DNA from: Candidatus Woesearchaeota archaeon
GTDB taxonomy: Archaea; Nanobdellota; Nanobdellia; Woesearchaeales; UBA10216
Length of the DNA: 64,000 bases
Direction of reading: 5' to 3'
Assembly: GCA_016184345.1 (NCBI GenBank)
Contig: JACPCV010000003.1
Span: forward strand, 110,094 to 174,093
Positions 23,667 to 23,848 of this stretch are shown piece by piece (positions within the stretch are counted from its first letter, which is position 1; the number at the start of each line of letters is the position of its first letter). The notes beneath the pieces are model-generated. The model had not been told where the DNA came from, made no database searches, and worked only from the letters and a program-made list of their open reading frames with translations. The translations under genes and the position numbers were made by a program.

Positions 23667-23848
23667 TGCGGGGGACGTGATTCGAACACGCGCACCCACT
23701 AAGGGACTACCCGTTTGACCCTTTTGCACGGCAAAAGGTTCAATCCAAAAACGTACGTTTTTAACGCCGTTTTTTGGTTGAGCTTTTTGGCATCAGCCAA
23801 AAAGCTCACCTCAAGGTAGCGCATTTGACCAGGCTCTGCCACCCCCGC
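23667..23848 (-). tRNA. tRNA-Leu(GAG) with a 96-nt intron at 37/38 (intron 23713..23808)
   Basis: Acceptor GCGGGGG/CCCCCGC, anticodon stem CTACC/GGTAG, long variable arm, TTCGAAT loop; conserved position between rpo3 and rpl18e. Confidence 0.92.

Follow-up and report, generated by a model that had tools for sequence, protein, structure and literature searches.

An intron in a woesearchaeal tRNA-Leu(GAG) gene, probably colonised twice by a mobile palindromic repeat

The 64,000-nucleotide stretch of DNA analysed here (the window), from a Candidatus Woesearchaeota archaeon, encodes a tRNA-Leu(GAG) whose anticodon loop is interrupted by a 96-nt intron, and this intron contains two copies, in opposite orientation, of a short palindromic repeat that is dispersed through the genome. 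We think it probable that a short intron at the canonical position was colonised twice by this mobile repeat, and that the intron as a whole is spliced out of the precursor. The source assembly, designated G000, comprises 884 kb in six contigs (C1 to C6) and is 85% complete; the other genomes are numbered in the same way. The parts of the gene, in window coordinates, are as follows.

23666..23848, minus strand: tRNA-Leu(GAG) gene, class II, interrupted by an intron (ARAGORN in intron mode); predicted mature length 86 nt.
23809..23848, minus strand: 5' exon, 40 nt, positions 1-37, with the anticodon GAG at 23812-23810; collinear with the intronless alleles of G004, G014, G017 and G018.
23713..23808, minus strand: intron, 96 nt, at canonical 37/38 (G37/G38), from ARAGORN and intronless orthologues.
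23768..23808, minus strand: forward repeat copy, a perfect 13-bp hairpin with TGAT loop and tail ACCAAAAAACG, which begins at the first intron base (repeat finder, BLAST, family profile).
23754..23767, minus strand: spacer, 14 nt, within a 49-nt block missing in the closest relative; predicted to pair with both tails into a middle hairpin (fold, alignment).
23716..23753, plus strand: reverse repeat copy, mini-hairpin subtype, with tail ATCCAAAAACG (BLAST, family profile).
23713..23718, minus strand: UCAAAC, the 3' end of the intron, of which UCAA is predicted to pair with U32-A35, leaving A, C and G38 as a 3-nt bulge at the 3' splice site (constrained fold, alignment).
23667..23712, minus strand: 3' exon, 46 nt, positions 38-73 (comparison with orthologues).

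The gene was called by the intron mode of ARAGORN as tRNA-Leu(gag) at c[133759,133941] of contig C2, which corresponds to window positions 23666-23848 on the minus strand, with a 96-nt intron; neither default ARAGORN nor Rfam at its gathering score calls it. Because the 40-nt and 46-nt exons are collinear with the 86-nt intronless orthologues of four other species, the limits of the intron fall exactly at 23713 and 23808. The placement of the exon junctions in these alignments is unambiguous, independently of any splice-motif model. The length of 96 nt and the canonical position, both proposed in an earlier note on this DNA, are confirmed by ARAGORN together with the intronless orthologues. 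The allele with two copies is reproduced without differences in contigs of three other runs, one of them from a different study (these contigs cover 23680-23848 or 23683-23838), and it is no assembly artefact. Among the DNA contigs of the other runs, no same-strain contig without one of the copies was seen; the other junctions among these contigs belong to tRNA-Leu genes of other species, at a likeness threshold of 85%, and were set aside.

A gene carrying a long, repeat-filled intron, which standard tRNA and Rfam searches overlook, might also be a decaying pseudogene broken by repeat insertions, and the genome does hold six odd class II tRNA-like sequences of bacterial type, some of them with the anticodon AAG. 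We give this explanation almost no weight. The exons are 95-100% identical to 16 syntenic orthologues, and 100% identical to those of the congeners, against only 73-87% in the flanking genes; on this comparison they are obviously under purifying selection. Another intact tRNA-Leu(GAG), which the earlier note had regarded as a sign of a pseudogene, is not found in G000 by ARAGORN or Rfam, so that 23666-23848 is the sole copy found, and the codons CUU and CUC make up 47% of the leucine codons (8034 of 17105, counted as CTT and CTC in 407 long open reading frames of G000). The AAG tRNA-like copies, for their part, are heterogeneous, with Rfam scores in the range of 21.8-63.7 bits. It should be mentioned, as a separate observation, that the six tRNA-like sequences all lie outside the window, at C1:17253-17339, C4:6930-7015, C5:12278-12367, C5:96534-96624, C5:162146-162231 and C6:39064-39154; their anticodons are GAT, AAG, GAA, CAG, AAG and AAG, five of them were scored by Rfam (in the range given above), and their D-arm presumably resembles that of bacterial tRNA-Leu.

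Within the intron, both hairpins quoted in the earlier note are present, in the opposite orientations described there. The arms of the forward hairpin (23779-23791 and 23796-23808) form 13 perfect base pairs, those of the reverse hairpin (23715-27 and 23731-43) match over 13 nt at 92%, and the repeat finder aligns the two copies with each other over 22 nt at 82% complementarity. In the tRNA sense, the intron closes with the bases AAC after the reverse copy. That the copies belong to a dispersed repeat, of about 58 copies, is likewise supported by significant BLAST matches to other loci of the genome: two of them resemble the reverse copy, with identities of 95% over 40 nt (E 4e-12) and 97% over 38 nt (E 7e-11), and a stretch of 26 nt in another tRNA intron is 96% identical to the forward copy (E 4e-6). 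The 97%-identical partner of the reverse copy is a copy in the intron of tRNA-Glu(CTC). A degenerate 16-nt core motif occurs four times in the window against 0.00 expected, and 0 of 100 shuffled sequences reach four. Among known RNA families, only two sub-threshold matches to miRNA hairpins were obtained in the intron, at 27 and 18 bits (cut-offs 81 and 56). The anticodon arm and intron together have a predicted folding energy of -53.3 kcal/mol, against -29.1 +/- 3.5 for 200 shuffles, none of which is as good (z -6.9). The intron is predicted to fold into three hairpins, in the middle one of which the spacer pairs with both tails.

Ten congeners, and nine genomes of other genera of the same family, yielded the syntenic tRNA-Leu(GAG), with the following alleles.

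G000: intron with forward and reverse copy.
G001, G002, G003, G005, G006, G007, G008 and G009 (same genus): intron of 39-61 nt with one forward copy, of mini or long subtype, 0-2 nt from the 5' splice site.
G004 (same genus): intronless.
G010 (same genus): contig ends 4 nt into the intron.
G014, G017 and G018 (other genera): intronless.
G012 and G024 (other genera): 13-nt intron without the element.
G022 (other genus): 22-nt intron without the element.
G021 and G023 (other genera): a different, non-canonical intron.

The relatives therefore hold both kinds of allele that the earlier note had envisaged, the intronless (G004, G014, G017, G018) and the short-intron (G012, G024, G022). All canonical introns end in ..CA(A/G)A(A/C)|G, and the element-free introns of G012, G024 and G022 end in ..CA(G/A)AA|G. 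The closest relative is G001, with 87% identity in the rpoD flank. Its intron, of 50 nt, consists of the forward copy followed by TCAAAC, and G000 has an extra 49-nt block between the tail and TCAAAC, made up of the spacer and the reverse copy up to ..GGG. None of the congeners with a readable Leu intron has the reverse copy, and eight have a counterpart of the forward copy at its position. On this alignment, the forward copy is old within the genus and the reverse copy is a later arrival, specific to the lineage of G000. Since the G001 intron already has TCAAAC without any reverse copy, one strand of the splice helix and its bulge are older than the reverse copy, which landed beside a pre-existing TCA that completes its arm. 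Two proposals of the earlier note have to be given up here. It had taken the terminal TCAA to be the element's own, and the intron of G001 speaks against this. It had also regarded the pair as a REPIN-like doublet; because the subtypes differ, and the forward copy is common to eight congeners while the reverse copy is unique to G000, the two are successive, separate insertions and not a REPIN unit.

The same note had left it undecided whether the repeat created the intron or colonised it. Creation would mean that the forward copy entered an intronless tRNA-Leu at 37/38 in the ancestor of the genus, that the 3' segment evolved or was inserted together with it, and that the family is a transposon making introns at the DNA level. 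Such a course agrees with the intronless alleles of G004, within the genus, and of three further genera, with the fact that in all introns of the genus the element starts 0-2 nt from the 5' splice site, and with the great over-representation of the family in tRNA introns (37/38 and 59/60) and at tRNA ends. It also agrees with tRNA-Lys(CTT), which is intronless in G005 and has an element-bearing 59/60 intron in G000 (C6:147300-147455). On the other side, sister genera have element-free introns of 13-22 nt with the same site, helix and bulge; in tRNA-Lys(CTT), the 59/60 introns of G008 and G014 lack the element and share the GAAAG|T end with that of G000; and the reverse copy demonstrably entered an existing intron. 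In addition, the segment of the tRNA-Glu(CTC) intron that is complementary to the exon includes G-U pairs, and it is therefore no inverted duplication of the target at the DNA level. We consider creation rather unlikely, and colonisation of an existing intron is favoured over it, because the element-free introns of the sister genera share the site, the architecture and the 3' end.

Other tRNA genes vary in a similar way among the congeners. In G003, G009, G010 and G013, the introns of tRNA-Lys(CTT) are located at or near 53/54 and in the anticodon arm (loci L054-L065). In tRNA-Glu(CTC) of G003, G005 and G009, complementarity to the intron start is limited to a 3' segment of 5 nt. These comparisons suggest that the constraint on such introns falls on the 3' segment complementary to the exon, and that the element is one of several possible fillers.

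A splice motif can be drawn for the Leu intron on the lines of the earlier note, which had described a helix of UUGA with UCAA, AC|G as a bulge of 3 nt and relaxation on the 5' side; this description fits all 12 intron-bearing alleles that were folded or read. In the constrained fold of the G000 intron, UUGA (32-35) can pair with UCAA, and A-C-G38 form the bulge at the 3' site. The helix is possible in each of the 12 alleles, with 3 bp in all and 4 bp in seven. A second 3-nt bulge and an outer helix of intron with intron, as in the strict hBHBh' (bulge-helix-bulge with flanking helices) motif, are not found in tRNA-Leu(GAG), where nothing continues the helix beyond UCAA; in predicted folds, the 5' splice site lies at a three-way junction, or in a helix with ACC of the tail. 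The motif is accordingly modelled as a relaxed bulge-helix-loop with a canonical 3' site.

The enzymes for such a reaction are encoded in G000. An open reading frame of 197 aa on C2 (L001 1474-2067) has the N-terminal and catalytic domains of the tRNA splicing endonuclease EndA (PF02778, PF01974) and is of the alpha type, no EndA gene of another type being found; its best PDB match is 3iey_A (E 5e-37), and by sequence it appears most similar to the catalytic subunit of Nanoarchaeum. The ligase RtcB is also encoded (E 8e-168). Beside the EndA gene lies a gene of the metallo-beta-lactamase fold (L001 2188-3087, plus strand; G000:C2 at about 96.6-97.5 kb) with a weak tRNase Z N-terminal match, so two tRNA-processing enzymes may be adjacent at this locus. 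The precursor must presumably be spliced, because this is the sole Leu(GAG) gene found, because CUU and CUC together make up nearly half of the leucine codons, and because the exons are under purifying selection. Since EndA and RtcB are both encoded and the gene is indispensable, we infer that these two enzymes would carry out the splicing.

The following course of events, which we consider probable, would accommodate these observations. The tRNA-Leu(GAG) gene, in a conserved cluster of rpoD, tRNA and rpl18e, would first have had a short canonical intron, whose 3' end (UCAA and two further bases) paired with positions 32-35 and left the 3' splice site within a 3-nt bulge. A forward copy would have inserted at the first intron base early in the history of the genus. 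Later, and only in the lineage of G000, a reverse copy would have inserted as a 49-nt block directly 5' of the old UCAAAC. The gene would be transcribed as one precursor, whose intron folds into three hairpins; the alpha-type EndA would cut the relaxed bulge-helix-loop, and RtcB would join the exons. The repeats would be mainly passengers, tolerated because the whole intron is discarded; in other words, we take the copies to be neutral, and EndA to have a relaxed specificity for the motif.

Several observations weigh against this account. The minimum-energy fold lacks the splice motif, since UCAA is held in the hairpin of the reverse copy by its inner arm UUGA, and the fold constrained to contain the motif is 3.2 kcal/mol worse (-47.8 against -51.0). 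G36-G37-U can pair with ACC of the forward tail, which would place the 5' site in a helix. The intron has two U5 runs and one U4 run, and runs of U can terminate archaeal transcription. With UCAA hidden in the optimal fold, and with a further cost that the U5 runs may add, the second insertion may be slightly harmful rather than helpful. A search of RNA runs for window positions 23560-23960 gave no match. No transposase partner was found for the repeat in G000 by the PF01797 and TnpB searches described below. Insertion at random, followed by passive tolerance, cannot account for a family of about 58 copies that fills at least 15 short introns; targeting or selection of some kind has to be involved, and calling the copies mere passengers is incomplete. 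Finally, alpha-type EndA is classically strict for the canonical motif. Passages of PMC5829648 state that DPANN lineages with many disrupted tRNA genes have a loop-bearing alpha4 EndA.

The repeat itself has the form of a hairpin, TGACC-T4-5...A4-5-GGTCA, followed by an A-rich tail. A family profile, built from 13 copies chosen by coordinate, gave 78 core matches in G000, of which 62 have a complementary 5' arm; about 58 are left when four doubtful rows are removed. The copies take three forms: mini-hairpins (21-25 nt), hairpins whose centre is rich in GC (30-36 nt), and elements whose loop encloses a nested double hairpin (66-74 nt). Covariation is seen between the outer arms of the copies (pair 1: TA 41, CG 12, AT 4; pair 2: GC 45, AT 12), a count that is biased towards pairing because the detection rule demanded at most two mismatches in nine. 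Exact occurrences of the 16-nt core number 15 in G000, 14 in G009, the only congener in a sample of the phylum, and 0 in the 399 other genomes of that sample, nine of which belong to other genera of the family; the reversed control has 0-1 occurrences in the sample (0 in G000). We take the family to be a young, genus-restricted, non-autonomous palindromic element.

The copies are concentrated at tRNA genes. Eleven of those in G000 lie inside tRNA introns called by ARAGORN, and four more follow GGTTCRAA, that is, they lie in T-loop (59/60) introns of tRNAs that ARAGORN overlooked. At least 15 of the approximately 58 copies are thus in tRNA introns, and at least seven loci abut tRNA ends. This concentration is very strong, because tRNA genes occupy, by estimate, well under 2% of the genome. 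Of 12 intron-bearing tRNAs called by ARAGORN in G000, nine hold a copy, the introns of the other three being only 10-22 nt long. The same family is found at both 37/38 and 59/60. At tRNA ends, the orientation is reverse at 5' ends and forward at 3' ends, and in every case, introns included, the copy turns its hairpin end towards the exon and its tail away from it. An example of crowding is tRNA-Gly(GCC) at G000:C4:14400-14640 (minus strand, locus L023), also missed by ARAGORN, with three copies: a reverse one abutting the 5' end, a forward one in a 37/38 intron and another forward one in a 59/60 T-loop intron. Further copies are intergenic, in a 5' untranslated region or in frame within long open reading frames; those readable in frame inside open frames of 120-358 codons are at C5:15107-15140 (minus strand), C6:60182-60213, C6:141379-141406 and C3:102188-102266 of G000.

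The tRNA-Leu(GAG) gene has a copy at its end as well.

23618..23664, minus strand: third copy, forward, of the long, GC-centred hairpin subtype, directly behind the tRNA 3' end (family profile).

A half copy follows near 23603-23615. A copy is located directly 3' of tRNA-Leu(GAG) in seven of the 10 congeners read, its subtype varying, and the contig of G010 ends before this point. In G004 (locus L005), the intronless tRNA-Leu(GAG) is directly followed by a mini-hairpin copy with the nested double-hairpin module in its loop, and about 560 nt of extra sequence lie between that copy and rpl18e. In G007-G010 (L006, L009, L010, L012), the 5' end of the gene is abutted by ..(G)CCCTTAT(A/T/C) after a GC-rich, hairpin-like sequence, which looks like the end of a different repeat family.

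That the family is mobile follows from comparison of orthologous sites among the congeners, which differ in presence or absence at two intergenic sites and in the Leu, Glu and Lys tRNA genes. One intergenic site, near window position 35715, is occupied in three of the six congeners compared (by three different sequence variants, in G000, G001 and G008) and empty in the other three. For a gene on the opposite strand, the copy there (35715-35744, minus strand) separates a TATA-like ATATATAAA box from the Shine-Dalgarno sequence and start codon, and it would form part of the 5' untranslated region of that gene. The other site, 43487-43520, is filled in G000 and G001, has a nested variant in G005 and is empty in G004. 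Here the copy is flanked by a 12-nt direct duplication, ATGAACTGCCCC (43522-43533 and 43472-43483, minus strand), which is also seen in G001 and which is the start of the adjacent gene, a zinc-ribbon gene that we take to be NrdR-like. Around the intron copies, no target duplication is visible; the 12-nt one at 43472-43533 is the single one seen. Copies common to congeners are 97-100% identical over 34-38 nt, with flanking genes only 73-87% identical. The mobility assumed in the earlier note is thus supported by filled and empty orthologous sites and by one copy with a 12-nt target duplication.

As to the means of movement, a partner of the IS200/IS605 type was considered and rejected, because the Y1 (RAYT) transposase domain PF01797 has no match in the 85% complete assembly G000, and a TnpB domain there scores 16 bits, below the cut-off. 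A strand lock of the repeat to replication was rejected as well, since the orientation of the copies has no association with the sign of the local GC skew (counts 8, 14, 13 and 24). Two roles for the repeat were also rejected. As regards a bidirectional terminator giving stop codons, 39 copies have a TGA in the 5' arm, and in only three of them does it close a frame of 100 codons or more, against 3 and 1 for the control frames. For a promoter, suggested by reverse copies that abut tRNA 5' ends, the TATA boxes of the signal recognition particle (SRP) RNA and tRNA-Gly genes differ from the repeat in look and distance.

If the copies were kept for a function, they might supply an outer splice helix, stabilise the precursor, protect against integrating elements or serve as sites for protein binding or processing. 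The intron of tRNA-Glu(CTC) speaks for this. It is also 96 nt long, with a forward and a reverse copy, the reverse one being a near-twin of that in the Leu intron. By eye, the first arm GUGACC pairs with the last arm GGUCAU into an outer helix, and when CUCU/GGGG and the bulges CG|U and AA|C are added to this helix, the result is a two-bulge motif that conforms to the strict hBHBh' form. The outer helix of a perfect motif is thus provided by the two copies jointly, the forward one contributing its 5' arm and the reverse one its last arm. Doublets recur in tRNA-Glu(CTC) of G000, G001 and G010 with different sequence variants, and the spacer hairpin has a compensatory change (GCGAC..GTCGT against GCTAC..GTAGT). 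The covariation of the hairpin arms across the family, and the constant direction of the hairpin end towards exons or genes, with the tail away, point the same way. Yet the outer arms of the Leu intron, again by eye, give no canonical motif, owing to a G-G mismatch and to a use of UCA that competes with the central helix; the reverse copy is absent from the other readable Leu alleles, which are presumably spliced well without it; copies also lie within open reading frames and untranslated regions; and the arm covariation is partly built into the detection rule. A retained function thus seems to us quite improbable. There is also a broader idea, which we hold only tentatively and regard as doubtful: that the repeat, far from being a random passenger, is a vehicle of tRNA-intron gain and turnover in these DPANN archaea, homing to the DNA (or RNA) of tRNA genes at present or future processing sites (37/38, 59/60 and the 5' and 3' ends), with its palindromic ends, especially inverted pairs, supplying the outer splice helix. 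Were this the case, a new insertion would be spliceable at once, and the family would amount to a DNA-level intron transposon that brackets exons and could be a first step towards split tRNA genes.

The surroundings of the gene bear on how the precursor is made. The neighbours, whose synteny is kept in relatives for the first two, are these.

23887..24690, minus strand: RNA polymerase subunit D gene (Rpb3-like, rpoD), the upstream neighbour (Pfam PF01000, PF01193).
23226..23585, minus strand: ribosomal protein L18e gene (rpl18e), the downstream neighbour (Pfam).
22615-23229, minus strand: ribosomal protein L13 gene, after L18e (Pfam).

An archaeal SRP RNA is also encoded in the window (Rfam). 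A TTTAAAA-type TATA box stands about 22-31 nt upstream of the SRP RNA and tRNA-Gly genes in the window, and no TATA box was found between rpoD and tRNA-Leu(GAG). Having no such box of its own, tRNA-Leu(GAG) is probably co-transcribed with rpoD. This matters for a further explanation, in which the two halves of the tRNA are expressed separately, with the forward copy as terminator and the reverse copy as promoter, and are joined in trans as an adjacent split tRNA. The layout of the intron (hairpin-tail, tail-hairpin) does resemble an intergenic spacer of G000, reverse copies abut several tRNA 5' ends and forward copies follow 3' ends, and there are U5 runs in the intron. The T- and A-runs of copies abutting tRNA 5' ends are nevertheless at about -8 to -20, too close in comparison with the TATA boxes at about 22-31 nt; besides the apparent co-transcription with rpoD, no canonical TATA box is seen inside the intron; and eight congeners manage without a reverse copy. 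Separate expression is therefore very hard to believe, and the colonisation of a short intron within a single precursor is the reading we retain.

It is useful to set the locus beside known systems. In canonical archaeal 37/38 introns of the hBHBh' type, the position, the 4-bp helix, the 3-nt 3' bulge and the use of EndA and RtcB are as predicted here, whereas the present intron differs in its 96 nt, its three hairpins and its 5' site, which lacks a canonical 3-nt bulge flanked by an outer helix. Bacterial REP and REPIN sequences are likewise short, imperfect hairpin repeats with a conserved single-stranded tag, tens of copies and occasional inverted doublets. They differ in that RAYT/Y1 transposase is not found here, that the doublet in the Leu intron is two independent insertions, unlike in subtype and age, and that the host is an archaeon; we know of no REP counterpart to the association with tRNA introns and ends. 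Rickettsia palindromic elements (RPE) and miniature inverted-repeat transposable elements (MITEs) share with this family a non-autonomous palindromic nature and tolerance in functional genes. Some copies of the present family can be read in frame within long open reading frames, and one is flanked by a direct target duplication. Unlike RPE, the repeat would be tolerated in a tRNA through RNA splicing and not through translation into a surface loop; unlike MITEs, no pairing of terminal inverted repeats with a transposase was identified, and the single 12-nt duplication has no visible equivalent at the intron copies.

The nearest parallel concerns the Thermoproteales, in which bulge-helix-bulge tRNA introns have been transposed, near-identical intron sequences occurring in different tRNA genes and positions (Fujishima et al. 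2010, as summarised in passages of PMC4090602). As in that order, the Leu(GAG) and Glu(CTC) introns have 38 nt in common at 97%, the family occurs at both 37/38 and 59/60, and spread at the DNA level under the constraint of the splice motif is implied. In contrast to that order, the unit here is only a part of the intron, is palindromic, is found outside tRNA genes too and has filled and empty sites among congeners; moreover, the host belongs to the DPANN archaea and has an alpha-type EndA, and the Thermoproteales have a heterotetrameric one. Passages of PMC4090602 call the arrival and movement of endonuclease-spliced archaeal tRNA introns unknown, and those of a preprint on Asgard tRNA introns (10.64898/2026.10.13.758758) say likewise, with no mobile-element signal found. 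A search of the full-text literature, with subscription papers and supplementary files outside its scope, gave no description of dispersed mobile palindromes in archaeal tRNA introns.

What is already known, then, is that intron sequences can be common to several tRNA genes (in the Thermoproteales, according to the same passages of PMC4090602) and that small palindromes are tolerated in bacterial genes. What appears to be new at this locus, as read from the aligned sequences, is the ordered series of introns and a splice helix older than the second copy. The series runs across species from no intron, through element-free introns of 13-22 nt and introns with one copy, to the intron with two copies, all between near-identical exons. 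At this gene, the evidence favours colonisation of an existing intron, which sets a limit on the reading of intron gain. Repeat-filled introns explain why standard tRNA finders overlook essential tRNAs in these genomes. Because what was inserted is a defined mobile repeat, present outside tRNA genes as well, the growth of tRNA introns in these archaea, and possibly their gain, can be dated on the tree and put to the test.

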